Below, one piece after another: positions 1,808 through 21,615 of a DNA stretch of 32,000 nucleotides. The stretch covers positions 1,645,701 to 1,677,700 of the forward strand of contig NZ_CP160328.2 of assembly GCF_040741455.2 (NCBI RefSeq), written 5' to 3'. The position numbers and the translations under genes are program-made. Under the pieces are notes generated by a model. That model saw only the letters and a list, made by a program, of their open reading frames with translations. It was not told the origin of the DNA and made no database searches. Every line of letters starts with the position of its first letter. Position 1 is the first letter of the stretch. The stretch is from Snodgrassella alvi (GTDB taxonomy: Bacteria; Pseudomonadota; Gammaproteobacteria; Burkholderiales; Neisseriaceae).

Positions 1808-4800
1808 ATGCAAAAAATTTTAGATTTTCTTTTTTCCCGCCGCATGCTGGTAATTATCGGTATTATTTTATTAGCACTGATAGTCTGGTTTGTAGGACCT
1901 TTGCTGACGTTTGGTGGATTGCATCCTTTTGCATCTATATCTACGCGCATTGTCACCATTCTGATTCTGTTCGCATTTCTGTTTCTATGGTTTAAGAACT
2001 GGTCGTTATCGGCTATCTGGGTTGCAGCTTTATGTGTACTGATATGGAAAGCAGCACCTCTGCTTGCATATGGTCAGACCAAACCATTTGCACCAGCATG
2101 GACTCGAGCCATGTTGATTGGCATCGTTTTGTTTTGTTATGCGCTGTATGGTTTGTACCGACTATGGTTGGCTTTACGTGTAGATGAGCAGTTATTGCAA
2201 AAAATCCTGCGTCCGCGTGGCGATAAACCTGTTGTTTCTGAAGCTCGTGAAGATCAGCGTGCGGTTACCAATATTGTCTCACGTGCCGTTGAGCAGCTTA
2301 AGCAATTGCGTATTGGTAAGCCGGGACTTGGTATACGCCGTATTTTTGAAGGTAAACGCTATTTATATGAGCTGCCGTGGTACATGATTATTGGTGCGCC
2401 CGGTGATGGTAAAACAACAGCTTTAATGAATGCTGGCCTGCAATTTCCACTGGCAGAGCAAATGGGACAATCAGCGGAAGCCTTTGCTGTGCCCGGCAAA
2501 GGCGGCACAGTACATTGTGACTGGTGGTTTACCAATGAAGCCGTGTTAATTGATACTGCTGGACGTTATGTTCGCCATGATGATGGCGGTTCTGCTGATA
2601 CTACTTCCCGCAATGCTGAGGAATGGCGTGGTTTTCTCGGTCTTCTGCGCAAATATCGTCCGCGCGCACCAATTAATGGTGTACTTTTAACAGTCAATGT
2701 AGCTGATCTGGCCGGTAAATCTGAAGCTGAGCGTATCACTGCTGCGGCAGCATTAAGAGCGCGTCTGGGAGAGCTCCGAACCGAATTAGGTATTCAGTTT
2801 CCGGTATATTTGGTGGTAACCAAAATGGATCTTCTGCCTGGTTTCACCGATTACTTTAACTCCCTAACTACTGAGGGGCGTGCACAAATATGGGGTTTCA
2901 CTTTACCGTATGATCAGAAACAGCAAAAAAATAATTATGATAAGCTGCGTTCAAATTGTGAAAGTGAGCTAAAGCTACTAACGCAAAGACTAGATCAGGG
3001 TGTAGATAATCGTTTACAGGAAGAATACGATGTACAGCGCAGATGTAATCTTTATGCTCTGCCACAGGAATTTGCTGCGCTTGCTGAACCATTACTAGAT
3101 ATTATAGAACGCGTATTTCTTGATTCTAAATTTGATGCAACCCAATTGCACAATACGCTCAGAGGTGTGTATTTTACTAGTGCAGCTCAAGCGCCAGCTC
3201 AAGCTACAGCTGATCGCCTATCCCTAATGCAACGTTTATGGCGGGCTATCAAGCGTGACCCAGCATATACTGAAAAAAACAGTCTTTATGCAAATACAGT
3301 ACCGCCTACAGGCAATCGCAGCTATTTTCTACATGATTTGCTGACCAAACTTATTTTTCAAGAGCCAAACCTAGTTCAACCCAATCTACAATGGGAAATG
3401 CGTTATCGCGTAATGCGATTTACCGGTCATTTATTGGTACTGATTATATTCCTTTGGCTAGTACAGGGTATGTATACCAGTTATGGTAAAAATAGTAATT
3501 ATCTTGCAGCAGTTAATGTTAAAGCAGCTGCGCTTGCTGAAAAAGTGCGCGTTTATTCACGTAAACCTACTACAACAGCTGTACCAGATATTCTGAATTC
3601 AGCCCGTGAGCTGGCTGCATACCCCGGACTAGATCCGGATAAACCACCAACCAGTTTCCGATATGGTTTGTATAGCGTACCGCATGTAATCAGTAGTGCC
3701 GCCTCCACTTATGACCAGCTACTGGATCAGCTGCTACTGCCACCTGTGGTTCGTGGTGTTGAAAGTACCCTTTCCAATGCTATTGCACAGAAAGATACCA
3801 AAGCAACCTATGATGCCTTACGTGTCTATCTGCTACTTAATCTGGATGCAGATCATCAGGATAAGTTTAACGCTGCTGAAATTCAGGCATGGATATTGAA
3901 AGACTGGCAACAAAACGATACCGCTGCAGCTTTTGGTGGAAGTGCCAGTATTTATGAGCATCTGGGTGCACTTTTTGATGGTAGCCGTGTCATACATTCT
4001 CCATTTGCCAAAAATGATGCCTTGATTCGTAGTGCAAGGGAGTTGTTGGAAGGTAGTACCAGTACCGAGCGAATCTACGACCGAGCCAAAGTTGCCATGA
4101 GTGATGAGGCACCAGAAGACTTTACGATTGTACGTGCAGTAGGCGCTGATGCCGGTATGGTCTTTGTTCGTGCCAGTGGCGAACCGCTTGATCGCGGTAT
4201 TCCGGGTCTTTTTACTGTACAGGGTTATAGAGATTTATTTGATAAACGCATCTCTGAATTTGTTGCTGCCGCTTATGCAGATGACGAATGGGTTATGGGC
4301 AGGGAGACTGCTGCTTCTCAAAAAAAAACTGCTGAACGTGCCCAGCAGCTGGTTCAGAAGGTTAACGGAGATGATGACCCTTTAATCAAAGAGGTGCGGC
4401 GGCTTTATTTAACAGAATACACTTCGCGCTGGCAGGCTTTTCTTGAAGATATTCACAGCGTGAATAGTACCGGTGCTGACAATAGTCCCAGTCTGGCTTT
4501 TGACTTACAGACATTGCGTACATTTGCTGCTCCCGATTCGCCACTGATGCGGCTTTCCAAAGCAGTTGTAGAACAAACAACGCTGGTACCACCTATGGAC
4601 AAAAATACCAGCCAAAAAATTCTGGCTGAACGAGCCGAACAAAGATTATCAGGCAATACCCGTGAAGCCGTACAGACAGCCAAATTGTTGAAAAACGTAC
4701 GTCCTGAAGAGCAGTTAGAAAAAACACTAGTCGATAATCGATTTGCTGCATTACGCGAAGTTGTCACCGGCGCTGCCGATATGCAAAACAGTAATGCAGG

Positions 4801-5737
4801 CAGCAGGCCGCAGAAATTAGACAACGTACTGAGTCTGCTCAATGAATATTACAATCAATTAATGATAGCAGATAATGCTTTAGCTGCTAACACTTTACCT
4901 CCCAAAATTGATGCTGCAGAAAAATTACGGCTTGAAGCAGTCAAAATGCCAGCACCTTTACAAAATATCTTGCTCGATCTAACCAATCAAGGGGCCCGTA
5001 AACTGAATCTGGCATCAGGAGAGGTACTTAGCCGGCAAATGGAGGCCATGATAGGCGGAAATTGTCGCAATGTAATTGATGGCCGTTATCCCTTTGCGGC
5101 CAGTAATCAGGAAGTAAGTGCGGACGATTTTAACCGTATATTTGCCAGTGGCGGACTGCTTGACGATTTTTTCAATAAACAGCTCGCATCACAAGTAGAC
5201 ATAACATCTAATCCATGGCGTTACAAACAATCTGAAGGAAGCAACACACCTTTACCGGGACCAAGTTTGGCACCGTTCCAGCAGGCAAAACGCATTCGGG
5301 AAGCATTTTTTCAGGAGCAGGGAGCTCGGAAAATGTCTTGGAGTATGGATATTAAAGTTGTTGAACTGGATCCCACAATTACAGACTTGATTATAGATAT
5401 TGACGGACAATCACAACGTTATATGCATGGACCGGTGCGTCCACTACACATTACCTGGCCAGGTCCGAGAAACGGTTCCATGGCTGAAATAACGGCCAAT
5501 CCGCGCATACGTCAGGATAGTTCAACAATTATTACCAGCGGGCCATGGGCGCTTTTCCGGCTGCTGAACAAAGGCCGAATCATCAGCAGTATGAGTGACA
5601 GCCGCCATTTGGTTGAGTTTAAATTTGATGGTCGCCGTGTAGTGCTCGAAATATCTTCCAGTGTAGATTTTAACCTACAAAGTGCAAACAACCCATTACG
5701 TGGATTTACCTGCCCAGTAGGAGGTAGTACGCCATGA
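1808..5737 (+). CDS. tssM: T6SS inner-membrane protein TssM (IcmF family)
   Basis: 1309 aa. Three N-terminal TM helices are followed by a Walker A motif (GAPGDGKTT) and then a long C-terminal periplasmic region. Size and architecture are typical of TssM/IcmF. Its stop overlaps the next start (ATGA at 5734-5737). Confidence 0.93.
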   Translation: MQKILDFLFSRRMLVIIGIILLALIVWFVGPLLTFGGLHPFASISTRIVTILILFAFLFLWFKNWSLSAIWVAALCVLIWKAAPLLAYGQTKPFAPAWTRAMLIGIVLFCYALYGLYRLWLALRVDEQLLQKILRPRGDKPVVSEAREDQRAVTNIVSRAVEQLKQLRIGKPGLGIRRIFEGKRYLYELPWYMIIGAPGDGKTTALMNAGLQFPLAEQMGQSAEAFAVPGKGGTVHCDWWFTNEAVLIDTAGRYVRHDDGGSADTTSRNAEEWRGFLGLLRKYRPRAPINGVLLTVNVADLAGKSEAERITAAAALRARLGELRTELGIQFPVYLVVTKMDLLPGFTDYFNSLTTEGRAQIWGFTLPYDQKQQKNNYDKLRSNCESELKLLTQRLDQGVDNRLQEEYDVQRRCNLYALPQEFAALAEPLLDIIERVFLDSKFDATQLHNTLRGVYFTSAAQAPAQATADRLSLMQRLWRAIKRDPAYTEKNSLYANTVPPTGNRSYFLHDLLTKLIFQEPNLVQPNLQWEMRYRVMRFTGHLLVLIIFLWLVQGMYTSYGKNSNYLAAVNVKAAALAEKVRVYSRKPTTTAVPDILNSARELAAYPGLDPDKPPTSFRYGLYSVPHVISSAASTYDQLLDQLLLPPVVRGVESTLSNAIAQKDTKATYDALRVYLLLNLDADHQDKFNAAEIQAWILKDWQQNDTAAAFGGSASIYEHLGALFDGSRVIHSPFAKNDALIRSARELLEGSTSTERIYDRAKVAMSDEAPEDFTIVRAVGADAGMVFVRASGEPLDRGIPGLFTVQGYRDLFDKRISEFVAAAYADDEWVMGRETAASQKKTAERAQQLVQKVNGDDDPLIKEVRRLYLTEYTSRWQAFLEDIHSVNSTGADNSPSLAFDLQTLRTFAAPDSPLMRLSKAVVEQTTLVPPMDKNTSQKILAERAEQRLSGNTREAVQTAKLLKNVRPEEQLEKTLVDNRFAALREVVTGAADMQNSNAGSRPQKLDNVLSLLNEYYNQLMIADNALAANTLPPKIDAAEKLRLEAVKMPAPLQNILLDLTNQGARKLNLASGEVLSRQMEAMIGGNCRNVIDGRYPFAASNQEVSADDFNRIFASGGLLDDFFNKQLASQVDITSNPWRYKQSEGSNTPLPGPSLAPFQQAKRIREAFFQEQGARKMSWSMDIKVVELDPTITDLIIDIDGQSQRYMHGPVRPLHITWPGPRNGSMAEITANPRIRQDSSTIITSGPWALFRLLNKGRIISSMSDSRHLVEFKFDGRRVVLEISSSVDFNLQSANNPLRGFTCPVGGSTP

Positions 5738-6471
5738 TTGGTATACCGCGCATCTCGTCACCTGCTATTTGGGGAAAATTACCCGACAGGGGCGATTATG
5801 TTCGCTATAGAGCACAAGGACAGGAAATTGATGAATGGCGGATATGGTTAAATAAGCAGGAATGGCTGCAGCCTCAAAAAGATAATATTAAGGATAAACA
5901 TGATTGGCTGTACCTGACGCCCGATTTTGGGCAGGAAAGTCCCGTACTGCATGCTTTACCATGGAGTTTTGTATTAGCACCCGGAATATTGCCATTTTCA
6001 GGACGATCCTGGGTAATCGGGGTGATGAGTCCTTCTGCAGACAGCATTGGTCGTTCTTATCCTTTGGTGATTTATCAGACAGTCAATCAGTCATGGCTGC
6101 AACGATATCTGAACACACCATTGGGCTGGCTATATTGGCTGGCACAGTTAGTAGCAGGATATGTGAAACCAACCCAAAAAAATACAAAAGATCTTGCTAG
6201 TCAATTAGATAAATTGTGGGAAATTCATAGTCCAAAATGGGGTGGCTGGTTTGCCAGAGCACAAGTAGGAAATCAGACGGCCTGTCGCGAACTGACAGGT
6301 AAGATAAAAGAGGAAGATACCGAATTTTGCGGTGTACATTATTTGCCTTGGGCTAATTGGCCGCACGTGGTTTGGGAGTCATTGTCCGCAGAAGGGTGGT
6401 TCTGGCAGCAAGATGGAAGGGGCGGATTTCTAGATGCAAGAAGCCTAGGCAATAGTGTTTGGAAGGAATAA
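5734..6471 (+). CDS. tagF: T6SS-associated protein TagF (DUF2094/ImpM-like)
   Basis: The N-terminal motif WGKLPDRGDYV matches the GKLPxRGDF/YV signature of TagF. The gene is about 245 aa and directly coupled to tssM, as in many T6SS clusters. Confidence 0.8.
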   Translation: MIGIPRISSPAIWGKLPDRGDYVRYRAQGQEIDEWRIWLNKQEWLQPQKDNIKDKHDWLYLTPDFGQESPVLHALPWSFVLAPGILPFSGRSWVIGVMSPSADSIGRSYPLVIYQTVNQSWLQRYLNTPLGWLYWLAQLVAGYVKPTQKNTKDLASQLDKLWEIHSPKWGGWFARAQVGNQTACRELTGKIKEEDTEFCGVHYLPWANWPHVVWESLSAEGWFWQQDGRGGFLDARSLGNSVWKE

Positions 6472-6473
6472 AA

Positions 6474-7037
6474 ATGCCAACTAAAAAAGGGGCGTCCCGG
6501 TTATTGACAACAGGAGAAATATCTATGGTGACATCGTTATTTAAAACGGCAATCACGACAAGCGCTGTCAGAATTCATAACGATAAATATTTACGATTTC
6601 AGGACGAAAATACAGCTATGACACCCAATGGAGAATTATATTGGCCACAAACACATTTTAGAGAGGATTATTCAATTGAAACAGTTGATTATATTCACTG
6701 GTTTATGCATGAAATGACACATGTTTGGCAATATCAAATGGGAATGTCAGTTAAAATTCGCGGTTTGTTTAGTTTTGCGATAGAGTACAATTATGATTTA
6801 GAAAAAGGAAATTTATTGTCTGGATATAGAATGGAACAACAGGCATGCATTTTGTCTGATTATTATATTTTGGATCGATTTGGGTTTGATTCTTGGTATG
6901 ACCGAACAAGACAAAAGCATAAAGGTGACCGTTTTAAAAATAAACAATATGGAAAAGATTTTTGGATGAAAATATATAGCAACACGCTGTCACTATTTCT
7001 AAAAAATCCGAAAGATCAAAAGGCGTTATTCGAGTGA
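6474..7037 (+). CDS. signal-less HExxH zinc-metallopeptidase-like protein (DUF4157-like / 'Vgr-related protein'-type); candidate T6SS cargo effector
   Basis: I prefer the ATG at 6474, which has GGAAGGA 6 nt upstream, over the TTG at 6459. The protein contains HEMTHVWQYQ (HExxH). The upstream pattern (..VRIHNDKY..TAMTPNGELYW..) and the downstream EQQA motif resemble the DUF4157-type fold as I remember it. There is no signal peptide or TM segment. Its stop overlaps the next gene's GTG (GTGA at 7034-7037). Confidence 0.6.
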   Translation: MPTKKGASRLLTTGEISMVTSLFKTAITTSAVRIHNDKYLRFQDENTAMTPNGELYWPQTHFREDYSIETVDYIHWFMHEMTHVWQYQMGMSVKIRGLFSFAIEYNYDLEKGNLLSGYRMEQQACILSDYYILDRFGFDSWYDRTRQKHKGDRFKNKQYGKDFWMKIYSNTLSLFLKNPKDQKALFE

Positions 7038-7498
7038 AAAGCAAATTGAAAAACTGGATATTGGTAGTGAGCATATTACCTTTAGTCACAGGATTTAGTT
7101 GTCATCGAAAAATGATGTATACGCCTGATATTACTCTAAAAAAAGATGGTCAGCCATGTATCAGTATACCCTTGCACGAAGTTAATTTTTTAAATAAAAA
7201 CAAGCAGTTTGATTTAATAACAGCAGACGTATTTCAAGTAGGTGTTGGCACGCTTTGGGAAAAAAAATATTATGACTCATCAAAACTTTATAAAATTCAA
7301 GCAGGTAAGTGCATAGGTTTTGAATACCATTTTCAAAAAAATATCGTTTATTCTATTGGTTTTATATCTGCAGCCAGTGGAAGCAAGGAGTTTGAAAATG
7401 GCGACCAAAAAATATGGGCTAGAGATTTGCGAATTACAACTAATACTGATGGCTCGGCAAAACTTTTATTAGATCTTGAAGCTAGAGAAAATAATTAA
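7034..7498 (+). CDS. exported small protein (signal peptide, atypical lipobox VTGFSC), candidate periplasmic immunity protein, paralog A
   Basis: The GTG start is coupled to the upstream HExxH gene. The N-terminus is hydrophobic (WILVVSILPLVTGFSC). Two Cys residues are conserved with the paralog (GQPCISIP and GKCIGFEYHF). About half of aligned residues are identical to the 7686-8168 product. Confidence 0.65.
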   Translation: MKSKLKNWILVVSILPLVTGFSCHRKMMYTPDITLKKDGQPCISIPLHEVNFLNKNKQFDLITADVFQVGVGTLWEKKYYDSSKLYKIQAGKCIGFEYHFQKNIVYSIGFISAASGSKEFENGDQKIWARDLRITTNTDGSAKLLLDLEARENN

Positions 7499-7685
7499 AT
7501 AAAAATAATCTACAAATAGTATGTTTTGAATTTTTGCTTTTCTTGTAAAAAAATTATATAAATCAAATATCTAATAGAAAATTTATCTGCAATTGAAGAG
7601 TTTTACAGATAGTTTTATTTTATCTGCATCTTTAATTTAGTCTAGCTCCTTTGGAATATCCAATAGATAGAAAAGTGTTATTCAA

Positions 7686-8168
7686 ATGAAACTAAGATTG
7701 AATAAGTACCTGTTGGTTAGTTTCATATTATTGTACATAACTGGGTGTTATTTTCATCGCCCGATGGTTTCTAAACCCGATATTGTTTTAAAAAATAATG
7801 GACAGCCATGCATTAGTATACCGGCACTACTGATAAATTTTGATCGTAAAAAACAGTTTGACATAATAACAACAGAGGTATTTCAAGAAGGTGTCGGGCA
7901 ATTATGGATGAAAGATTATTTTGATCCGCTAAATTTTGGTTTACCAAAAAAATATTATGTTGTGAGTGGAGAGTGTATACGCTTTGACTATCATTTCCAG
8001 AATAATATTGTCTATTCAATCAATTTTGAATCAAATATTAGAGGAAACGATGAATCAAAGAATATGACGCAAAAAACATGGGCAAGAGAATTTCGTATAT
8101 TCAAAGATAATCATGGTAATGTGGAATTATGGTTAGATTCTAGTGCCAGAAAAAACAAATATAATTAA
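7686..8168 (+). CDS. lipoprotein (canonical lipobox ITGC), candidate periplasmic immunity protein, paralog B
   Basis: The signal peptide ends in the lipobox LLYITGC. It shares GQPCISIP, EVFQ.GVG.LW, GECIRFDYHFQNNIVYSI and WAR..RI blocks with the 7034-7498 product. Confidence 0.7.
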   Translation: MKLRLNKYLLVSFILLYITGCYFHRPMVSKPDIVLKNNGQPCISIPALLINFDRKKQFDIITTEVFQEGVGQLWMKDYFDPLNFGLPKKYYVVSGECIRFDYHFQNNIVYSINFESNIRGNDESKNMTQKTWAREFRIFKDNHGNVELWLDSSARKNKYN

Positions 8169-9323
8169 AAGAAAATAAATACATTAATCATGATTTTTAA
8201 ATTTGCAATTATTATGTTCTGCAAAAAGCGCTTTTGAGAACCAAAAAAGGTCGAGTAATTTTATTAAAATGACAATAGTTTAGAAAATTGTATTATATCT
8301 AATATTTATCGGTTGGTTACAGCGGGACATGTAATCGTTTGCTCTCAGGGCACTATGAAGAAATAATTATAATTAATTCAAAATATTACGCATTACATTA
8401 ATAACCATTATACTCAAAATAAAAATTTGTTTTGTAATGAATCGGATAATTTTCCTATAAAGTGAAAATATGATGTATTAAAACTGTCGCCCAAAAAATA
8501 AGTCTGGAGAATACCTCATATACTGGCATTCAAAGATATATGATTGATAGCTATTGCCACTAGTAAAAAATACAGAATTTTGAATTTGTCATTATGATTA
8601 GATATTAATAATTATGTCAAAATACTATTATTATGTTTGCTGTAAATTGAAAACTAAATTAAATCATAGATGCCTGTGCTTATCATTTTCTAAATCAACC
8701 AGATTTGCAGATAGTTAAGTTGTTGTAAAAGATTAATTTAGAAATCTATAAATTCGCTTTATTTCAAAAATAATGTCTTATATTGTGTAAATATTATATA
8801 TAATAAAGTTTTATTTGGTTAAAAGGTGTTTCAAAGATTTATGCTAAATTAATGCTGAATGATTAAACATTTTTTGCATCTTTTTTTCTTCAATAAAGGT
8901 TTTATTGTTGGGAGATTAAAGTGCGGTGTGAATATTGAATAGAGTAGTACAAACTTATTTGCAATATGAAATAGCCAAAATTATAGCCTAATGTTAATTG
9001 TATTCAGGCGGGTTAATCAGTCAATATTTAGAGAGATGGAGATAGTACATAAGTAAAGGTAGACACTTTCAGATAAAAATATTGTGGTCTTCCATGCACC
9101 GGTTTGTTTTGCTATTTAAGATACGTCAGTAATGGCACTTGCTGGAAGAAATAATCTGGTTCAGAAAGTCATTTTCTAAATAATTATTTAATTTAAACCT
9201 TTAGAATGGGTTTGCATATCACGTTGGAAAAAAGGCCGTCCGCTGAATAAGCAATCAATACTGAAACATGCGCCTATATTGCATGTAATTAAATCTATGG
9301 CGCAATAATGATGGGGAAAAACC

Positions 9324-11630
9324 ATGAGTATAAAACCAGAGTCAGATGAACAGCTTCTGCCGGTGAATTCACTTACCCGTACACCTGGGTTTGTAAGCAA
9401 CCAAACAGTATCTCCAGATATTGGAGAGCTGGTGCAAAATGGTGTTGAACAGGTGGCGGACAAATTGGCAGAAAAAGCTAATTCGACTATCGCTCAAACT
9501 AAAAAAGCCATAGATACAGCTACAGACGCAATGGAGGCTATAGGGAGCATAGGGACAGCATCTCCACTGATGAAAGCAGCACAGGCAGCAGTAGCAGGTA
9601 GTTCGGTACCAGTTAGTGCACAGGATATTGTGGATGCTGTAACTGGTGGAAGCAGTGGCGGTACACGGACAGTGAATGTCAGTGGTGCTGCCGTCCCTGC
9701 TGGTATGCTTACTTTTGCCAGTATGAACGGACAAGAAACTTTAAGTGAGTTATTTAGCTACACCATTCAACTTAAGACTCCTGATAAGCTAAATATTGGC
9801 TACTTCGCGCCTAGTTCTAATTTGCCATTAAAATCAATGGTAGGCAAGGATCTGACTGTTGATATAGAGCTTGAAAACGGTAGTAAACGCTATATCAGCG
9901 GGTTGGTTACGGCTGCTCGCGTTGTGGGGCATCAGGGACGGGGTGTGGTTTATGAGCTGCGTCTTGAGCCATGGCTAGAGCTGGCTACCCGTACCAGTGA
10001 TTACAAGATATTTCAGAATAAAAGTGTAGTAGAAATTATCGATGAAGTTTTAAGTGAATATCCATTTGAGATGGAAAAACGACTTACTGAAACTTATCCG
10101 AAGCGCAATTTTCAGGTTCAGTATGGTGAAACCGATTATGATTTCCTGCAACGTTTGATGCAAGAATTCGGTATATATTATTTCTTTGAACATAGTGCTG
10201 GTAGTCATAAACTGGTGTTAGTCGATGCTATTGGTTCTCATCAACCTTGTCCCGGAGCTGCATCTGTAAGTTTTCATCAGCAGGGTTTAAAGCTGGATGA
10301 AGAGTTTATCCATACTATTGCAGCGAAAGAATCCCTACGTACCGGTAAATGGGTATTAGATGATTTCGATTTTCAGAAACCAAAAGCCAAACTTACAAGT
10401 ACAGTAGCTAAACCACGTGAGACTGGGCATCCTGATTATGAGCATTATGAATGGCCTGGTGATTATTTTGAAAAAGATGAAGGCGAATTCCTGACTAAAG
10501 TACGTATGGAAGCGCAGAAATCTTTAGGCAGCCGAGTATATGGCAGTGGCAATATACGTACCCTAGTGACAGGCTGTACTTTCAATTTAGAAAACTGCCC
10601 TACAGTTGAAGCAAATCAAGAATATCTGGTTGTTGAAAGTGCGCTTGTGATTGAGGATATGGGGGAATACAGTGGTCAGGGACAACATTTCGGATACAAC
10701 ACAAGTTTTGAACTATTACCAACCAGTGAAGTTTTCCGTCCGCAGCGTACTATAAAAAAACCACATACCCATGGCCCGCAAAGTGCCATTGTGACAGGTC
10801 CGGCAGGAGAGGAAATCTGGACAGACAAATATGGCCGAGTGAAAGTGCAATTTCTCTGGGATCGTTACGGCCAGTGGGATGAAAACAGCTCGTGTTGGGT
10901 ACGTGTTACACAGCCGTGGGCAGGTAAGGGATTCGGTGGTATGCAGATACCGCGAATAGGCCAGGAAGTCATTGTTGATTTTAAAAATGGTGATCCGGAT
11001 TTACCAATTATCACTGGCCGAGTGTACAACGCTGATACCATGCCAGCATGGGGTTTACCTGACAACAAAACTCAAAGCGGAATGTTCAGCCATTCGATCG
11101 GAGGCGGGCCTGATAATGCCAATGCTTTGCGATTTGAAGATAAACCGGGGCAAGAGGAGCTCTGGCTGCATGCTGAAAAAGACCAACGTATCGAAGTCAA
11201 TAATGATGAAAGCCATTCTGTTGGAAATAATCGTACAAAATCAATTGGCAATGATGAGGTCATTAGTGTAGGCAACGACCGTACAACTTTGATCAGTAAT
11301 GATTGTCTTCGTGCTGTTAAAGCCAATGACACGGTTTTGATTGGAGAAAATAAATCGACTAGTGTCAGTAATGATTTTGTAATTGCTGCAGGGACAACCA
11401 TACGCTTGTCATGCGGAAAAACTGTACTGGAGCTCCATGCCGATGGGCAATTTAATATTACCTGTGAAAATTTCAATATCACGGCAGCACAAAGTGGCCA
11501 GATTAATACACTTGGTAACCTACTGGATTTGAATATGGACGGGGGAAGTGCTGCGGCTCAACCTGGTTCTGATGGAGATAAAGGCAATATTGATAGTGCA
11601 GTAAATCAGATATTTTCACCACCAGCATAA
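9324..11630 (+). CDS. vgrG: T6SS spike protein VgrG, with an unusually long N-terminal extension and no C-terminal effector domain
   Basis: 768 aa. A gp27-like region begins near aa 128 ([23 protein letters not shown]). A gp5 OB-fold block is present ([79 protein letters not shown]). Beta-helix repeats follow ([22 protein letters not shown]..). GGGGA lies 7 nt upstream of the ATG. Confidence 0.93.
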
Positions 11631-11656: not shown

Positions 11657-12085
11657 ATGCAATACCAAACAAATGATACCGAATTTCAGATTCCAGACCC
11701 TGACATTAAAGATGTTTCATTAAATATAATAAAATTCAAAAACTTAGGTACATCATTAGTTTTGAGTCGCAGCGAACTTGGAGAAGAGGAAACGCTTGAA
11801 TCCAGCCTGGATGACCAGTTAAAACGACTTGAAAGCTCTGTAAAAGGATTGAAATTTCATCAGAAAAACAAAATCAGTTTCGGAAAAAATCAGAATATTG
11901 AGGCATTTGAGTTAAGTAACCAGTTTATTAAGGGTGCAGAAAAAGTTTACCAATATCAGCTGGTGTGTCTTATTCCCGGTACTCGAACCATGTTTGCGAT
12001 GAGTTATGTAAAAAATACCAATTTGGGCGAAGCGGAATTAGCCCATTGGGAATTAATTAAACAAAATTTTGAATTTAAAAAATAA
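11657..12085 (+). CDS. DUF1795 (DcrB/Eag-family) effector chaperone
   Basis: 142 aa, located between vgrG and a prePAAR/TMD effector. The sequence pattern (NDTEFQIPDP..DVSLNIIKF..GTSLVLSRSEL..ETLES..DDQLKRLE) fits my recollection of the DUF1795 family. Confidence 0.7.
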   Translation: MQYQTNDTEFQIPDPDIKDVSLNIIKFKNLGTSLVLSRSELGEEETLESSLDDQLKRLESSVKGLKFHQKNKISFGKNQNIEAFELSNQFIKGAEKVYQYQLVCLIPGTRTMFAMSYVKNTNLGEAELAHWELIKQNFEFKK

Positions 12086-12106: not shown

Positions 12107-15100
12107 ATGGGACAGGCATATTGGGCTGCCCGAAAGGGAGATAAACTTCTGCATACCTCATTACTGGCAGATATAGTAGGCGCAGCCGTGGAGTTGGCTT
12201 GTTATACTGCCATCACAATAGCAGCTAGTGTTGCAGTTTTTGGGACATTTGCAACTGCTGGGCTTGCTGGCTTTGCTCTAGGTGTTATGCTTGGTGTCGT
12301 AATGGAAGTATCTGGAGGTAACAATAAAATTTCAGAGTTAGCAGATTGGGTTAGCGGTTTATTTCCACCATCTGAAGATGGAGAAATCGAAACCGGATCA
12401 CCCAATACCCAGATTAATAACCGATTAGCTGCTCGGGCTGCTGGTACCATTGACCAAGACCAAGAACTTGTGGGTGACAATGCTGAACCAAAACAACCTA
12501 AAAGTTTTGTAGACGTTGCGGCTGACTTCTTGGGTGGATTATGGGATATCGTCCAAGAAATGGTTAGGCCAACTGTAGCTTCACCAGATCCAAGGGCGGC
12601 TCCTGCAAAAGAAGATGGAATTCGTTGCTTTAAACACCCATCTTCATTTGCTGATATAAATAAAAAACTCAACCAACCACCTAGCGAAACAGATAAGCTC
12701 TGCCCAGGTTTGGCAGCTTTTGATCCCATGATGGGTGATACCAAAGCCACTATTAGCTTTACCGAATATCTGGCCGAAGGTTCCAGTAAAGTCTACATCA
12801 ACAGCCAGCCGGCCGTACGCAGTAACGACCGCAGTACCTGCGAAGCCAAAGTCACAGAGAATTGTGAAAATGGTGAGAAAGTATCTAAGAACGTACGCAT
12901 CGGTGGTGAGCCCATCGTCGTGCGTGAAATCAAAAGCGGCAAACATCCCGTTGCCCAGCTTATTGGTGTGATTTCTGCCTTAAGACATGCCCGCAAAATC
13001 TTTTCCTGTATATCCTGTTTTGTTCTACGCTTGGCTGGTGATGCAAGTATCAGTATTGTTACTACCAAAATAGTACAAGCGATAACCCGCGGCCACCCCG
13101 TCCACCTCCCCACCGGTGCCAAACTCCTCTTCGACACCGAAGAGCTCGACTTCACCCTCCCCGCCCATCTGCCCCTCCAATGGCAACGCTTCTACAGCAG
13201 CGTCGACACCCGTACCCACAACATGTTCGGCGCCGGATGGAGCGTCAGCTTCGAAGTCGAAATCGAAATCTCCCCCCAGCCCGATGGCTCCTGTGCCGCC
13301 GTCTATATCAACGAACAAGGCCGCCGCCTCGAAATCGACCCCTTACAACCCGGCGAAGGCATGCGCGGCATCAACGAAAACCTCACCATCCGCCGTGGCC
13401 AGCACAACCGCTGGGTCATCGAAGACGACGACGGCCTTTACCGCCTCTTCGAGCCCGACCCCAACCAACCCCACCGCCTCTACCTCACCGCACTTCAAGA
13501 TCGCAACGACAACCGCCTCCTTCTTTACCGCGACAGCCACAGCCGCATCATCGAAATCACCGACAACGACCGCAGCACCCGCCTCTCCCTGCACTATCAG
13601 CATCCCCAGCACCCACAACGCGTCACCACCATCAAACAGCAACTGGCCAATGGCCACAGCCGGGTACTGGCACAATACCAGTACACCGCACAGGGCGACC
13701 TCCAACACGTCATCGATGCCGAACAGCGGCACACCCGCACCTTTGCCTACGACACCGGCCGACGCCTCATCTACCACCGCCTGCCCACCGGCCTGCACTG
13801 CCACTACCAGTGGGATTACTTTGCCGATGCCGCCGAAACCGCCTGGCGCGTCACCCATCACTGGACCGAAGCAGATGGCCAGCGACAAGAAGACTATCAC
13901 TTTCACTACGATATTGAGCAACGCCTCACCACCGTCAAAGACAGCCTGGGACGCATCAGCCAGCATTACTGGAACGAAGTCTACCAAATCACCCGCTACA
14001 TCGACCCCCTTGGTCACACCACCGCATTTGAATGGAACGACAACCAACAACTCATCAGCGTCACCGACGCCCAAGGTGGACAATGGCGCTACAGCTATGA
14101 CGAACAAGGACGCGAAACCGCCGAAACCGACCCACTGGGACGCACCACCCAGACCCAGTGGTTACCCCACTGGGCCTTACCCACCATCAGCGTCGACCCC
14201 GACGGCAGCACCTGGCGCTACTACTATGATGAACGCGGCAACCTGCTGACCGTCATCGACCCCTTAAAACAACGCACCCGCTACCAATACGACCAGCACG
14301 GCCAAATAACCAGAATCACCGATGCCAGAGGTGGGCACAAATACCTGCGCTGGAACCCGAACGGCCAGCTTATCCAACATACCGACTGCTCCGGCTCCCT
14401 GACCCAGCTTGGCTACGACCGCCATGGCAACCTGACCGACATCACCAACGCCATCGGCAACAGCAGCCGCTACCAGTACAACGCCGCCGGCGACCTTATC
14501 AGCGCCACCTTGCCCGATGGCCGCCAAGAACACTTCAGCGTCAATGCAGCAGGACAATTACTGACCTATACCGACCCCGCCGGCCACACCACCCATTACC
14601 ATCGGGACCCGCGCGGACTGGTGCACCGACGCACCGATAGCGCCGGACGCAGCATCCGCTTTCACTATGATACCTATAGCCGGCTGACTACATTAACCAA
14701 CGAAAACGGCGAGCATTACCAATTCACCTACGACGCCGGCGACCGCCTAACCGAACAGACCGATCTGGGCGGACGTAAACAAAAGCTGACTTACGATCAG
14801 CTGGATAACGTCAGTGCCGTTCACTTTGCTGCCGGCAGCCCCGCCGAAATCACCCACCGCTTCACACGCGATGCCATCGGCCGACTGATTGGCAAACACA
14901 CCCCCGATGGCAACACCGCCTACCAGTACGACCCCGCCGACAACCTCATCAAAGTCGGCTACAAAAAAGCCGGCTTACCGACCGAGGCCGAAGCAGACAT
15001 CATCACCTTTCGCTACGACATCATCGGCAACCTGCTGAGCGAAACCACCGCACAAGGCACCCTCAGCCATCAGTACGACCAACTGGGCAACCGCATCGCC

Positions 15101-16636
15101 ACCACCTTGCCCGATGGCCGTACCCTCAACAACCTCTATTACGGTTCCGGCCATCTGCACCAAATCAACCTCGACGGCACCACCATCACCGACATCGAAC
15201 GCGACCGCCTACATCGCGAAGTCCTGCGTAGCCAGGGACAACTGAACACCGAATTCAGATACGACCGCAACAGCCGCCTGCAACACAAACAGACCCGGCG
15301 TGGCCACAACACCATCCTGCCCGACATCCTTACCGACCGCCGCTACCAGTACGACAACCTCGACCGGCTGGTGAGTAAAAAACATACCCGGCAAGGACAG
15401 ACCGATTACCACTATGACCGCACCGGCCGTATCGAAAGCTGCCGCAACCAGGCCTACTGGGAAACCCTGCAATACGATGCCGCTGCCAACCTGCTGGATA
15501 AAAGACGCAACGAAGACAGCAGTACCGACAACCAGAACCTGATACGCTTTAACCAGCTACTCCACTTTCGTGGCCTGCAATACACCTACGACGCACACGG
15601 CCGTACCCACAGCAAACAGACCGCCAGCGGTACTCAGTATTACCACTACGATGCCGAACACCGCCTGACCGAAGTGCGTATCGAAAAATTAAACTGTACC
15701 GAACGTTACGGCTATGTCTACGATGCCTTAGGCCGACGTATCGAAAAACACCAGATAGACCGGGCGGGCAAAGCCTGCAACCGTACCCGTTTCCTGTGGG
15801 ACGGGCTGAGAATGATTCAGGAAACCCGTACTGACAGAAGCAAAAGCGTCTATATCTACACTGATGAAAGCGGCTATGAACCCTTAGCCAGAGTAGAGAC
15901 CACCACCGGTACGGAACAGAAAGTGCTGTACTACCACACCGATGTCAACGGTGCCCCGGAAGAACTTACTGATGAAGACGGTCACATTGTATGGGCATGC
16001 AGTTATCAGCTGTGGGGCAAACCGATACAGGAAATCGAACACAGCCAGATACAACAGAACCTGAGGTATCAGGGGCAGTATTTAGACAGAGAAACGGGCT
16101 TACATTACAATACTTTCAGGTACTATGACCCGGATATAGGCAGATTCACGCAGCCGGACCCGATTGGGTTGCTGGGTGGGTTTAATTTGTATCAGTATGC
16201 GCCTAATGGGTTGATGTGGATTGATCCGTGGGGTTGGATTTGTAAGGTAAAAGTTGACCGAGGATCGCATGGTCAGCCTCTTTCAGCAAAAGCAACAGTA
16301 TCTAAAGCTGATATAGGTACAGGGACAGCAACAAATCCTTCTTCAAGAGCTTGGGCTAGAAGATTAGGTAATGCGGATGATGACGCAGGACATATCTTAG
16401 CTAAAATATTAGGAGGTTCAGGTGGCATAGATAATGTTTTTCCTCAACTAAAAGGTGTGAATCGTGGTAGATATCGAGCTTTTGAAAAAAGAGTTAGGCA
16501 ACATATCAAAGAAAATGGAACAGTAGATTTAGAATGGGAATTTAAATATAAAGGAGGTGGTACAAGGCCTACTGGTATTGTCTATAAAGTAATTCAAAAT
16601 GGTGAGTTGCAATTTAAACATGTTTTTGCTAATTGA
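12107..16636 (+). CDS. rhs: prePAAR-TMD-PAAR-Rhs polymorphic toxin with a C-terminal EssD/YeeF-type (Endonuclease_NS_2-like) nuclease domain
   Basis: 1509 aa. The prePAAR motif AARKGDKLLH (AARxxDxxxH) is followed by TM helices (aa about 20-70) and a PAAR-like region (VYINSQPAVRSNDRSTCEAKV). Many YD repeats are present (YxYDxxGNL/RL). The core ends in PDPIGLLGGFNLYQYAPNGLMWIDPWGW (16223-16237 encodes DPWGW). The 132-aa tip (16238-16633) carries DDAGHILAKILGGSGGIDNVFPQLKGVNRG..FE..V, resembling EssD-like DNases. Confidence 0.95.
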   Translation: MGQAYWAARKGDKLLHTSLLADIVGAAVELACYTAITIAASVAVFGTFATAGLAGFALGVMLGVVMEVSGGNNKISELADWVSGLFPPSEDGEIETGSPNTQINNRLAARAAGTIDQDQELVGDNAEPKQPKSFVDVAADFLGGLWDIVQEMVRPTVASPDPRAAPAKEDGIRCFKHPSSFADINKKLNQPPSETDKLCPGLAAFDPMMGDTKATISFTEYLAEGSSKVYINSQPAVRSNDRSTCEAKVTENCENGEKVSKNVRIGGEPIVVREIKSGKHPVAQLIGVISALRHARKIFSCISCFVLRLAGDASISIVTTKIVQAITRGHPVHLPTGAKLLFDTEELDFTLPAHLPLQWQRFYSSVDTRTHNMFGAGWSVSFEVEIEISPQPDGSCAAVYINEQGRRLEIDPLQPGEGMRGINENLTIRRGQHNRWVIEDDDGLYRLFEPDPNQPHRLYLTALQDRNDNRLLLYRDSHSRIIEITDNDRSTRLSLHYQHPQHPQRVTTIKQQLANGHSRVLAQYQYTAQGDLQHVIDAEQRHTRTFAYDTGRRLIYHRLPTGLHCHYQWDYFADAAETAWRVTHHWTEADGQRQEDYHFHYDIEQRLTTVKDSLGRISQHYWNEVYQITRYIDPLGHTTAFEWNDNQQLISVTDAQGGQWRYSYDEQGRETAETDPLGRTTQTQWLPHWALPTISVDPDGSTWRYYYDERGNLLTVIDPLKQRTRYQYDQHGQITRITDARGGHKYLRWNPNGQLIQHTDCSGSLTQLGYDRHGNLTDITNAIGNSSRYQYNAAGDLISATLPDGRQEHFSVNAAGQLLTYTDPAGHTTHYHRDPRGLVHRRTDSAGRSIRFHYDTYSRLTTLTNENGEHYQFTYDAGDRLTEQTDLGGRKQKLTYDQLDNVSAVHFAAGSPAEITHRFTRDAIGRLIGKHTPDGNTAYQYDPADNLIKVGYKKAGLPTEAEADIITFRYDIIGNLLSETTAQGTLSHQYDQLGNRIATTLPDGRTLNNLYYGSGHLHQINLDGTTITDIERDRLHREVLRSQGQLNTEFRYDRNSRLQHKQTRRGHNTILPDILTDRRYQYDNLDRLVSKKHTRQGQTDYHYDRTGRIESCRNQAYWETLQYDAAANLLDKRRNEDSSTDNQNLIRFNQLLHFRGLQYTYDAHGRTHSKQTASGTQYYHYDAEHRLTEVRIEKLNCTERYGYVYDALGRRIEKHQIDRAGKACNRTRFLWDGLRMIQETRTDRSKSVYIYTDESGYEPLARVETTTGTEQKVLYYHTDVNGAPEELTDEDGHIVWACSYQLWGKPIQEIEHSQIQQNLRYQGQYLDRETGLHYNTFRYYDPDIGRFTQPDPIGLLGGFNLYQYAPNGLMWIDPWGWICKVKVDRGSHGQPLSAKATVSKADIGTGTATNPSSRAWARRLGNADDDAGHILAKILGGSGGIDNVFPQLKGVNRGRYRAFEKRVRQHIKENGTVDLEWEFKYKGGGTRPTGIVYKVIQNGELQFKHVFAN

Positions 16637-16645
16637 GAGGGTTTA

Positions 16646-17071
16646 ATGAAAAATAATATAGAGGAAGCAGTATCAATATTAAAAAATTTTATTTTAGCTA
16701 TGAACAAATGGGAAGGTTATTGTGAACCTCTTACTGAGTTAATAGAAAACGGTGAAGATGAAGAACCTTTACAAAATAAAATGAGATCTGAATTAAATGA
16801 TATATTTAATCAATATTGTACTGATAAAAAAAGAAAATACGGTAGACAGGTTTCATTAGATTGTGGATATCCTCCAGAATACTCACCTGATGAAGAAATT
16901 TTAAAAATTGAAGAATTAAGTAAAAATAAATTACTTATACTTACAAAACAGCATACGGAGTTTAAAAATCAATTTCGTTATACATTAGTTTATAAAAATA
17001 AAGAATGGCGAATTGATAAAAAAGAAGTATTTGATAAATTTGATAATAAATGGGAAAAATATGCTCTTTAA
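16646..17071 (+). CDS. cognate Rhs immunity protein (possibly NTF2-fold immunity family)
   Basis: 141-aa AT-rich ORF starting 9 nt after the rhs stop, with the RBS GAGAGGG. This is the canonical immunity position. The pattern (FILAMNKWE..YCT.KKRKYGR..EW.IDKK) is reminiscent of Imm-NTF2-type proteins. Confidence 0.65.
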   Translation: MKNNIEEAVSILKNFILAMNKWEGYCEPLTELIENGEDEEPLQNKMRSELNDIFNQYCTDKKRKYGRQVSLDCGYPPEYSPDEEILKIEELSKNKLLILTKQHTEFKNQFRYTLVYKNKEWRIDKKEVFDKFDNKWEKYAL

Positions 17072-17514: not shown

Positions 17515-18105
17515 ATGCTTCTAGATGAAGCTGGTCATATTGTATGGGCGTGCAGCTATCAGCTGTGGGGCAAACCGATACAGGAAATCGAACACAGCCA
17601 GATACAACAGAACTTAAGGTATCAGGGACAGTATTTAGACAGAGAAACGGGCTTACATTACAATACTTTCAGGTACTATGACCCGGATATAGGCAGATTC
17701 ACGCAGCCGGACCCGATTGGGTTGCTGGGTGGGTTTAATTTGTATCAGTATGCGTCTAATGGATTGATGTGGGTTGATCCTTGGGGGTTGAAATGTGGAT
17801 CAACTAGAAAATCATACGAACAAGCAAAAAATAAAGCTTTAGCATGGTTAGAAAAAAAAGGTTTTAAAGCGGAAAAAGTTAATATAGGAAAATTTGGCTC
17901 AACAAAAGGAAGGCCTGTAGGAATGATGACTGCAGATGGAAAGACGGGATTTAGAGTAGAGTACGATGGAAGAAATGGAGCTCATATAAATGTGTTTAGC
18001 GGAAAAGATAAAGGTGAGCATTTCTTATTTAATGCTACTGAATCCACAGTAACCAAACTTCAAAATCTATTTAATCATCCCTCTAAACCACGGAGAAATT
18101 TATGA
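17515..18105 (+). CDS. orphan Rhs C-terminal module: core 3' end plus a distinct toxin domain of unknown family, with its own ATG
   Basis: 196-aa ORF. Positions 17524-17790 match 15971-16237 (about 14 mismatches in 267 nt by eye) and encode ..PDPIGLLGGFNLYQYASNGLMWVDPWGL. A new 104-aa tip follows (KCGSTRKSYEQAKNK..GFRVEYDGRNGAHINVFSGKDKGEHFLF..). It is out of frame with the upstream core fragment. Confidence 0.7.
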   Translation: MLLDEAGHIVWACSYQLWGKPIQEIEHSQIQQNLRYQGQYLDRETGLHYNTFRYYDPDIGRFTQPDPIGLLGGFNLYQYASNGLMWVDPWGLKCGSTRKSYEQAKNKALAWLEKKGFKAEKVNIGKFGSTKGRPVGMMTADGKTGFRVEYDGRNGAHINVFSGKDKGEHFLFNATESTVTKLQNLFNHPSKPRRNL

Positions 18106-18551
18106 CATTTGATGATGAAATCAAAATAAAAATCTCTCAATTATCTGACCCACCAAAACTAATAGATAATTGGGAAGATATTGCAGATAAATTATCTGAT
18201 TCTTTTAATTGGAAAGGATCAAAGATTGACTGGAAAAAAACTATTAACTATAAAAGTAGTCAACTTTTTGGAAACTATTCTAATTGGGTATTGGTAATAA
18301 AAAAATTCATATATGATAATGAGATATGTGCTGAAATAAAAAAAAGTAAAGTAATTTATTATATAAATGATTCGTCTTTAAATTTTGCAGTGCAATTAAC
18401 TTATAAACAATTTGATAATTTTCTTGCGTTTGCTGTTGAAAATATTCCTCAACATCATTATTTTTTTGATTCATCAAATAAGTGGTGTCTAGTTATAAGT
18501 TCAGAAGGGTATGTTGATTTTGGACTATCCCAGAAAAATTTACAAACATAA
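18102..18551 (+). CDS. immunity protein candidate for the orphan toxin
   Basis: 149-aa AT-rich ORF whose ATG overlaps the orphan toxin's stop (ATGA at 18102-18105). No signal peptide and no recognisable family. Confidence 0.6.
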   Translation: MTFDDEIKIKISQLSDPPKLIDNWEDIADKLSDSFNWKGSKIDWKKTINYKSSQLFGNYSNWVLVIKKFIYDNEICAEIKKSKVIYYINDSSLNFAVQLTYKQFDNFLAFAVENIPQHHYFFDSSNKWCLVISSEGYVDFGLSQKNLQT

Positions 18552-20318: not shown

Positions 20319-21218
20319 ATGATAAATATAACTAAACCTTGTAAAGTCGTTAAAACAAAATATCCCATTGTACTTGTACATGGTTTGTTTGGCTTCGATC
20401 GGATTATGGGTTATCCCTATTTCTTTAATATTGCTGAATCTTTAAGAAAACTGGGTTGTGAAGTTTATACTGCTGCTGTTTCTGCAACCAATACTACCGA
20501 AACCCGTGGTGAACAGTTGCTGACAGAAGTGAAGCAGATACTGGCAAAAACCTGTGCTAAAAAGGTTAATCTGATTGGACATAGCCAGGGTGCGCCTACC
20601 AGCCGTTATGTGGCTGCTCTTCATCCGGAGCTGGTGGCATCTGTAACTTCTGTAAATGGTGTGAATTTTGGTTCCGAAATTGCAGATTTGATGCTGGATA
20701 TTCTTGCTGGGAAGATTGTAGGTGAAACTGCTGATCTGATTGTTGAATCATTCATGAAATTTATCAGTTTATTCAGTACCAAACCTTTGCTGCCACAGGA
20801 TTTTGAAGGTTCACTGAAAAGTTTGTCTACTGCAGGTACAAATGAGTTCAATAAAAAGTATCCACAAGGTCTTCCAAAAACTTGGGGTGGACAGGGTAAA
20901 GAACTGGAAACCAATGGTGTTTACTATTACTCTTGGAGTGGTATTATCAAATCAAATGTGGTCAATGAAGGTGTAAATACTCTGGATCCATCACATGCTA
21001 TTTTGGTTGCCTTAAGTGCTTTATTTACTAAAGAACGCAACCAGAATGATGGTTTGGTTGGCCGTTATTGTACTCATTTGGGTAAAGTTATCCGTTCTGA
21101 CTATCAGATGGATCACTTAGATGCAATCAATCAAATTGCAGGTGCTCATCCGACTACACCAGATCCAGTCAGCATTTATTTGGATCATGCTGCACGTTTG
21201 AAATCTAAAGGTCTGTAA
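20319..21218 (+). CDS. triacylglycerol lipase, bacterial family I type (alpha/beta hydrolase), no signal peptide
   Basis: 299 aa with the [22 protein letters not shown] is the oxyanion-loop region. GHSQGA is the nucleophile elbow. MDHLDAINQ is the catalytic-His block typical of Pseudomonas/Proteus-type lipases. The protein starts directly at the mature-domain equivalent. Confidence 0.85.
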
Positions 21219-21320
21219 TTTAGATTCAATATACTGAGAATAATAACTATAAGTATATTTTGGATTGATAAACTGTCTTGAACAAGTGAAGTAGTATCAA
21301 AGCTTACTTGTCTGCAAGGA

Positions 21321-21354
21321 CTGAATCCTGTGAATAACAGGATTCAGTTTTTTT
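21321..21354 (+). terminator. rho-independent terminator downstream of the lipase gene
   Basis: A perfect 10-bp stem ctgaatcctg / caggattcag with loop tgaataa, followed by a 7-T run. Confidence 0.75.
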
Positions 21355-21615
21355 ATATGTGTATTTTCTGAAAAGAATGCGCAATCAGGCTGAATAAAAG
21401 TGGAGTTATTCTGTAACTAAGGTATTTGGTTTGTTGGTTCCAATATATGGCATTCAAATTTCTTCACTATATATTAAATAAATATTAGAAATTATGAGAG
21501 ATGGATGTGATGTATACAGGTTAACATTAACTAAAATGTAAATGTCAAAATATATTAACCCTATATGTATATTATGTGTTAATATTATACTTATGTTTAT
21601 AAAGGTTAATTTATT

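Follow-up and report, generated by a model that had tools for sequence, protein, structure and literature searches.

What do the three small genes that lie between tagF and vgrG in the cluster T6SS-1 (T6SS, type VI secretion system) of Snodgrassella alvi encode, and why should one candidate toxin gene be followed by two lipoprotein genes? We addressed this question in a stretch of 32,000 nucleotides (nt) from contig NZ_CP160328.2 (assembly GCF_040741455.2, positions 1,645,701 to 1,677,700), referred to below as the window, in which the three genes occupy positions 6474-8168. We read this segment, with a probability of about 0.85, as a Tpe/Tpi-type T6SS effector gene followed by its translationally coupled cognate immunity gene and by an orphan immunity gene. 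An earlier note, made from the letters of the DNA alone, had proposed an uncharacterised module consisting of a periplasm-acting T6SS metallopeptidase effector and coupled periplasmic immunity. The proposed function gained support from homology to experimentally characterised proteins; the word "uncharacterised" had to be given up, since the family is that of the VgrG2b C-terminal domain (VgrG2b C-ter) and PA0261 (Tpe/Tpi), described in 2017-2019, and the same architecture was validated in S. arizonae in 2026.

The predicted metallopeptidase and the two lipoproteins

The effector gene (6474-7037, + strand) lies inside the T6SS cluster according to the open reading frame (ORF) map and domain scans, and encodes a protein of 187 amino acids (aa) and 22.4 kDa whose ATG stands seven bases after GGAAGGA. 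The earlier note had described a HEMTH protein after tagF of about 22 kDa, with no export signal and no PAAR, MIX or Rhs domain, and the ORF map, the computed mass and a Pfam scan agreed with it on every point. Over the first 40 residues the Kyte-Doolittle maximum (11-residue window) is 1.1, compared with 2.6-2.7 for the lipoproteins encoded by the two downstream genes, B and C, and the protein is predicted to carry no export signal. A phmmer search of the PDB matched residues 7-137 to 6H56, the C-terminal domain of P. aeruginosa VgrG2b (E 3.8e-22). The Foldseek check suggested in the earlier note was run on an AlphaFold2 (AF2) model built on 30 homologs (predicted local distance difference test (pLDDT) 91.9, predicted template modelling score (pTM) 0.90), and 6H56 was again the sole significant PDB match (6h56_A/B, E 2.9e-11, template modelling (TM) score 0.64-0.67, 36% identity), the next match having E >1 in this comparison of a prediction with crystal structures. 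Residues H79, E80, H83 and E121 are invariant in the 30-sequence alignment and align to VgrG2b H935, E936, H939 and E983, the last of which is the third zinc ligand of VgrG2b; the effector stretch MEQQ likewise aligns to VgrG2b IEQQ. Because homology to 6H56, an aligned and conserved active site and the modelled fold all agree, we assign the protein, on sequence and model, to the gluzincins (MA(E)) of the VgrG2b C-ter family. Such an enzyme would be thermolysin-like, its zinc bound by H79, H83 and E121 and E80 serving as catalytic base; the HEMTH motif (residues 79-83) is encoded at 6708-6722 and the E121 codon lies at 6834-6836, both on the + strand.

The suggestion in the earlier note of a DUF4157-like fold, named "Vgr-related" in some annotations, proved a good lead as far as annotations and names go: Wood et al. 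state that the family is often annotated as DUF4157 (PMC6899460), and database names for its members include "Rhs element Vgr protein". The domain match itself did not hold up. Pfam and NCBIfam returned only sub-threshold eCIS_core and DUF6782 matches on the effector, that to eCIS_core/DUF4157 (PF13699) scoring 14.4 bits against a cut-off of 22 (E 0.045), and 2 of 42 longer relatives reached this model at E<=0.001; the likeness is limited to the HExxH core. The statement that no substrate has been assigned to the family still holds in a 2025 review (PMC12133291).

The effector stop codon (TGA, 7035-7037) overlaps the GTG (7034-7036) of gene B (7034-7498, + strand) in a 4-nt GTGA junction, exactly as the earlier note had read it, and related S. 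alvi loci show the same 4-nt overlap of effector and immunity gene. Gene B might instead start at a TTG (7046), the start used by another strain in which the GTG is mutated. The products of gene B (154 aa) and gene C (7686-8168, + strand, 160 aa) are 50% identical, and both have a K/R-rich n-region and a hydrophobic h-region leading to a cysteine (Cys23 in B, Cys21 in C), in line with the claim of two exported paralogs. Judged by pattern, the lipobox of C (ITG-C) is classical and that of B (GFS-C) is atypical, fitting just a looser lipobox pattern from PROSITE. The two further cysteines noted earlier, C42 and C93 in B and C42 and C97 in C, do not vary among 26 homologs from Snodgrassella and Enterobacterales and would form a putative periplasmic disulfide. 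Pfam placed both proteins in DUF7480 (PF24295) well above the cut-off of 27 bits (B 72.7 bits, 3e-20; C 84.5 bits, 6.4e-24), and close Snodgrassella relatives bear the name "putative T6SS immunity periplasmic lipoprotein" (NF045617) in NCBI/UniRef. AF2 modelled B as an all-beta sandwich (pLDDT 81.8), for which Foldseek found no significant match in the PDB (best E 5.7e-3, TM <0.3, a generic beta-sandwich likeness).

To follow the immunity proteins beyond DUF7480 we iterated a profile from the Snodgrassella proteins and ran it over stop-to-stop fragments of the genome loci. The profile converged, and it reached ORFs directly 3' of VgrG-fused or PAAR-fused effector genes in Pseudomonas, Paraburkholderia and Janthinobacterium. 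Since an effector gene immediately precedes 54 of the profile's 58 hits among the genome loci, on the same strand, true immunity homology is indicated rather than profile drift. The Pfam DUF7480 model misses the ORFs 3' of VgrG-fused and PAAR-fused homologs in Pseudomonas, Paraburkholderia, Massilia and Burkholderiales, and the iterated profile together with positional enrichment suggests the immunity link to the Pseudomonas and Burkholderiales homologs. The pairing of effector and DUF7480 lipoprotein was also observed in other S. alvi, Serratia and Enterobacteriaceae loci.

Among the nearest known relatives are VgrG2b and PA0261 of P. aeruginosa. VgrG2b C-ter binds zinc, is toxic only in the periplasm and requires E936 for toxicity; it makes cells bleb at midcell and lyse, with no peptidoglycan hydrolase activity detected, and it lowers the membrane levels of the lipoproteins MltC, LolB and RcsF in vitro (PMC6899460). 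It is neutralised by PA0261, a periplasmic protein encoded downstream, with partially conserved cysteines and DsbA-dependent levels (PMC6899460). The module in the window shares with this pair a homologous catalytic domain with the HExxH + Glu zinc site, and an immunity gene immediately 3' whose product is periplasmic with conserved cysteines. It differs in that the domain is a free 187-aa protein, whereas in VgrG2b it is the C-terminal part of a VgrG that also has DUF2345 and TTR domains, and in that the immunity protein, unlike PA0261, is a lipoprotein of the DUF7480 subtype. Wood et al. (2019) distinguished VgrG-fused, PAAR-fused and free "cargo" forms of the domain, reported that the Enterobacteriaceae immunity proteins are outer-membrane lipoproteins, and merged the family with Tpe1-Tpi1 of A. 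baylyi (PMC6899460). Tpe1-Tpi1 (ACIAD0053/ACIAD0054) resembles the window pair in that a stand-alone cargo metallopeptidase from this family is encoded next to its immunity gene. As Ringel et al. (2017) are cited in PMC6899460, Tpe1 is toxic in the periplasm and requires its catalytic triad; according to the same source Tpi1 is not a lipoprotein like those of the window but is tethered to the inner membrane through a transmembrane helix.

Closest in architecture is the pair SARI_02727 (189 aa)/SARI_02726 (a 154-aa DUF7480 Sec/SPII lipoprotein) of S. arizonae SPI-20, validated in 2026 in competition assays and in tests of PelB-directed toxicity and rescue, with an AlphaFold3 complex at an interface pTM (ipTM) of 0.87 (PMC12992299). 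Compared by description, both loci have a stand-alone metallopeptidase of about 189 aa and then a 154-aa DUF7480 lipoprotein within a T6SS cluster; they differ in host, Enterobacteriaceae versus Neisseriaceae, and in the extra orphan immunity gene of the window. The nearest enterobacterial relatives that our searches returned for the effector show 40-55% identity, mostly over about 75% of its length.

Taken over from these homologs, the mechanism would be as follows. The effector, lacking an export signal, would be synthesised in the cytoplasm and would leave the cell on the T6SS spear. Its size of 22.4 kDa is compatible with Hcp-lumen cargo. In the periplasm of a neighbouring Gram-negative cell the peptidase would disturb envelope or division functions, with lipoproteins or peptidoglycan-remodelling proteins as its suspected targets. 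The product of gene B, a DUF7480 lipoprotein predicted to face the periplasm and to contain a disulfide, would neutralise the toxin by binding.

Probable orphan immunity and cassette exchange in Snodgrassella

The earlier note had treated the two lipoproteins as equivalent partners of the effector. If B and C were both needed against it, either as a two-component immunity or as redundant duplicates, C would not be an orphan; their paralogy, their common strand and the lack of a predicted terminator between the two genes would suit such an arrangement. We nevertheless regard it as unlikely. Translational coupling was found for B only, and other strains have one, three or four immunity genes per effector; in S. 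arizonae and P. aeruginosa a single immunity protein suffices. Comparison with S. alvi CP166869 (loci L082 and L083), which is about 95% identical to the window at the DNA level, speaks against it as well. The CP166869-type effector is a different allele, with 61% identity to that of the window, and is followed by an array of three immunity genes, I1 to I3. The protein encoded by C is 87% identical to I1, the coupled immunity of that allele, and 96-97% identical to I3, the last gene of the array, whereas B is 77% identical to I2; the I1 and I2 values are the same in L082 and L083. Immediately 5' of C, moreover, lies a decayed vestige of an effector-gene 3' end (7645-7689, + strand). About 45 nt of it align with intact effector 3' ends, including the ATGA stop/start junction, which is kept, and its translation is LEYPIDRKVLFK followed by a stop, compared with LKDPKDRKALFG and a stop in the intact L082/L083 effector. 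The converse arrangement was seen in L083, where a stub 5' of I2 encodes "...YSNMLSLFLKNPKDQKALF", the 3' end of a window-type effector. From these comparisons we conclude that gene C is best read as an orphan immunity gene left by a displaced cassette.

The boundaries of the presumed exchange could be located by aligning the window with L083. Over tagF and the initial ~125 nt of the effector gene the two sequences are 93-100% identical at the nucleotide level. Inside that gene, past position ~6600, identity drops sharply from about 97% to about 60%, and it stays there for the remainder of the gene and the immunity gene that follows, so that the conserved 5' segment (6474-6600, + strand) ends at an apparent recombination breakpoint. 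The two effector alleles, 61% identical overall, differ at one position in their first 37 residues. The N-terminal ~38 residues fall within the region aligned to 6H56 (7-137), and their conservation more likely marks a recombination arm than a delivery tag.

Other Snodgrassella loci carry further traces of such events, and it is at precisely this site that related strains differ. In locus L081 there are two effector-immunity modules, both complete; a duplicated 85-aa tagF 3' fragment (12534-12791 of that locus) stands ahead of the second, and a 67-aa immunity 5' fragment follows each immunity gene (11063-11266 and 13838-14041). The tagF and immunity fragments are scars of repeated recombination, and the duplicated fragment indicates that the tagF 3' end acts as the upstream homology arm in related strains. 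Loci L082 to L084 have one effector followed by three DUF7480 genes, and in S. communis (L085) one effector with four immunity genes lies away from any T6SS cluster. Across Snodgrassella we found at least 10 effector clusters at 52-97% identity, and the GC content of the module is 31-34% compared with 44-45% for tssM and tagF; both observations fit horizontally exchanged cassettes.

Repeated cassette exchange in which old immunity genes are kept appears, from these sequences, to be the simplest history of the locus. Gene C would once have been coupled to a different effector allele, which was lost when one cassette replaced another between conserved flanks, namely the tagF 3' end with the initial ~125 nt of the effector gene on the upstream side and the immunity/vgrG region on the downstream side. 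The retained gene, 87% identical to I1, would probably protect its bearer against rival S. alvi strains that fire the CP166869-type allele.

Orphan immunity arrays and cassette displacement are familiar from the auxiliary clusters of Vibrio cholerae and from the acquired defence islands of Bacteroidales. In bee symbionts, displacement of Rhs C-termini has been described (PMC8125069). The Snodgrassella loci resemble these systems in that the old effector gives way to a new cassette at conserved flanks, its immunity gene and an effector 3' stub stay behind, and arrays of 2-4 immunity genes result. They differ in that the displaced unit is a small cargo metallopeptidase and that the upstream arm consists of the 3' end of a core gene, tagF, with the first ~125 nt of the effector gene; within the searchable literature we found no description of exchange at a tagF-type arm for the Tpe family. 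One may go further and suppose that the tagF-tpe junction is a dedicated exchange site for cargo toxins, used through this homology arm, where each swap strands immunity genes, and that the resulting 2-4-gene arrays, together with Rhs repertoires, decide which S. alvi strains coexist in the bee gut. We put this forward tentatively, at a little under even odds. If true, it would provide the first effector outside the Rhs class to be assigned to S. alvi T6SS-1 and the first case of "C-terminal displacement" for the Tpe family.

A much longer array than those of Snodgrassella was observed in Janthinobacterium sp. ZB1P44, where six tandem immunity-like ORFs follow a homolog of about 404 aa (L060, 10392-13684).

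Linkage of the wider family to type VI secretion

How closely the wider family is tied to T6SS was examined with a profile search of 1.84 billion cluster representatives, which returned 4889 proteins at E<=1e-3 and 2366 at E<=1e-10, and with a scan of species-representative genomes, which gave more than 500 family loci; the locus-level counts below refer to the best 80 of these. Of the 143 top representatives, 73 are proteins of <=250 aa without PAAR or VgrG, 20 are PAAR fusions, 9 are VgrG fusions and 41 have some other N-terminal extension. The 42 longer proteins that we scanned with Pfam are essentially this last class; four carry PG_binding_1 and one LysM, which fits action at or near peptidoglycan in spite of the negative peptidoglycan hydrolase result for VgrG2b C-ter (PMC6899460). 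Among long homologs that were sampled, 7 of 10 were PAAR fusions and 1 of 10 a VgrG fusion, and the 80 genome loci contain 11 PAAR-fused genes, with a PAAR gene alongside in 5 loci. The probes for T6SS genes were TBLASTN searches with the TssL, TssM, TagF, VgrG, DcrB and Rhs proteins of the window and a PAAR profile. By TBLASTN alone, T6SS genes were detected at just a handful of the 80 loci, and since TssB, TssC and Hcp were not among the queries, absence of T6SS from a locus is weakly supported.

Several observations weigh against our interpretation of the module. Even with fusions counted, and with these limited probes, about one quarter of the 80 loci show a T6SS gene or a PAAR/VgrG fusion within 10 kilobases (kb), and 37-39 of them, mostly from Massilia and Caballeronia, have no recognisable Tpi-type gene downstream. 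In two Massilia loci with stand-alone homologs (L008, 10531-11205, and L013) the next gene encodes a MepA-like Peptidase_M74 with a signal peptide and there is no Tpi, which hints at a branch of the family that is non-T6SS or linked to the cell wall. Wood et al. likewise flag homologs in Sphingomonadaceae, taxa that rarely have a T6SS (PMC6899460), and part of the wider family may not consist of T6SS effectors. As regards the lipoproteins, both B (29.4 bits) and C (39.2 bits) miss the cut-off of 43 of the NCBIfam model NF045617. The loading route is also without a visible component: Pfam revealed no Hcp fusion among the 42 longer family members and no delivery domain on the effector, and no adaptor gene lies beside it, the adjacent DcrB/DUF1795 chaperone gene (11657-12085) belonging with the Rhs toxin.

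Another reading is that the peptidase is a housekeeping or self-acting envelope enzyme with its inhibitor, engaged for example in cell-wall or lipoprotein turnover, and that its location in a T6SS cluster is incidental. Many stand-alone homologs do have housekeeping neighbours and no T6SS gene within 10 kb, and the MepA-like neighbours, the few members bearing PG_binding_1 or LysM and the occurrence in taxa with few T6SSs point the same way. We consider this explanation very unlikely, however. A signal-less enzyme and a periplasmic inhibitor make sense together only if the enzyme is delivered into the periplasm by injection. PAAR and VgrG fusions are frequent in the family, three homologs are T6SS toxins by experiment, and polymorphic alleles, orphan immunity arrays and remnants of cassettes are typical signs of loci involved in antagonism. 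The earlier note had held that homologs found overwhelmingly outside T6SS loci would count against an effector. In the sense intended this objection does not apply, low co-occurrence at the locus level notwithstanding: fusions join the domain to the spike, orphan islands are normal for cargo effectors, and three members have been found T6SS-dependent experimentally. The Serratia and Enterobacteriaceae copies are such islands, consisting of two genes, effector and DUF7480 lipoprotein, among housekeeping genes.

The same immunity genes bear on the question of the target. VgrG2b reportedly promotes uptake into epithelial cells, a cross-kingdom role involving gamma-tubulin has been proposed for it, and T6SS mutants of S. 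alvi alter the gut transcriptome of the bee (2024 S. alvi paper), so that an effector aimed mainly at the bee host might be envisaged. It is highly improbable in our estimation: dedicated periplasmic immunity and orphan immunity arrays point to bacterial targets, the VgrG2b toxin acts on a compartment unique to bacteria according to the 2025 review (PMC12133291), and the 187-aa protein has nothing beyond the peptidase fold.

One PAAR-fused homolog with a periplasmic-type immunity gene was found on a contig labelled Bacillus subtilis SK7B5 (L050); this attribution to a Gram-positive organism probably reflects contamination of the assembly.

The module in the T6SS-1 locus

Neither "metallopeptidase" nor "VgrG2b" occurs in the bee-symbiont T6SS literature that we searched (PMC5727410, PMC8125069, PMC11536156 and a 2026 bioRxiv preprint), and the 2017 paper among these refers to "five hypothetical genes" in T6SS-1 and attributes toxicity to Rhs proteins. 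Assignment of the module in S. alvi thus appears to be new within the searchable literature, although the family itself is known, and its effector is a candidate for the first non-Rhs effector of S. alvi T6SS-1. For T6SS biology at large this adds little, as the family, its periplasmic site of action and lipoprotein immunity have all been published. Work on antagonism in the bee gut has dealt almost entirely with Rhs proteins and has listed these genes as hypothetical, and a second class of polymorphic toxin, accompanied by orphan immunity genes, would offer a concrete, testable determinant of strain compatibility. The natural alleles, with their matched and mismatched immunities, could help to map the toxin-immunity interface, and a small stand-alone enzyme is perhaps easier to handle than the VgrG2b fusion in a search for the substrate of the family.

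The mapped gene order begins with tssL (DotU + OmpA, 16-1113), followed by a gene for a secreted 173-aa protein with a signal peptide (1154-1675), tssM (1808-5737) and tagF (5734-6471, + strand; Pfam TagF_N 1.2e-17, TIGR03373), the last core gene before the module. Downstream of the immunity genes an AT-rich spacer of 1.15 kb (8169-9323, 27.5% GC) leads to vgrG (9324-11630, + strand), a possible carrier of the effector within the same T6SS locus. After vgrG and the chaperone gene come a PAAR-Rhs nuclease toxin gene (12107-16636) and an Imm-NTF2 immunity gene (16646-17071). The spacer shows 85-100% identity per 60-nt bin with L083 and its length is likewise conserved. An Rfam scan of the whole window, the spacer included, gave zero matches, and promoter and terminator predictions between 5600 and 9500 did not exceed the number expected from shuffled sequence; the spacer may be a regulatory or silencing region.

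Some neighbouring features deserve mention in their own right. VgrG has an Ala/Ser/Thr-rich N-terminal extension of about 125 aa (9324-9750) ahead of the usual gp27-like start, without a Pfam match, and its length of 768 aa is also called in other S. alvi strains. The 173-aa protein between tssL and tssM has no Pfam or PDB match, its family was not recognised, and it is conserved in S. alvi. An additional ORF of 200 aa without a signal (4095-4697, motif ...LIHDGLDNSTEIFATIGCIEIM...), present in L081 only, lies just 5' of the 173-aa gene and overlaps it by 17 nt; the two may form another cargo effector-immunity pair, of which the window lacks the effector. The idea that the 200-aa protein is an L,D-transpeptidase-like effector, suggested by its HDG...GCIE motif, was dropped as unsupported, as it has no match in Pfam or the PDB. 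An orphan Rhs C-terminal fragment (RHS core end + Ntox47, 17515-18551), with its own 149-aa gene downstream, comes after the full-length Rhs-nuclease/Imm-NTF2 pair and forms with it a classic Rhs displacement array. Just past this array (20319-24093), a gene for a signal-less 299-aa lipase-like alpha/beta hydrolase (GHSQG), which may or may not be a T6SS Tle-type effector, adjoins one for an 825-aa autotransporter.

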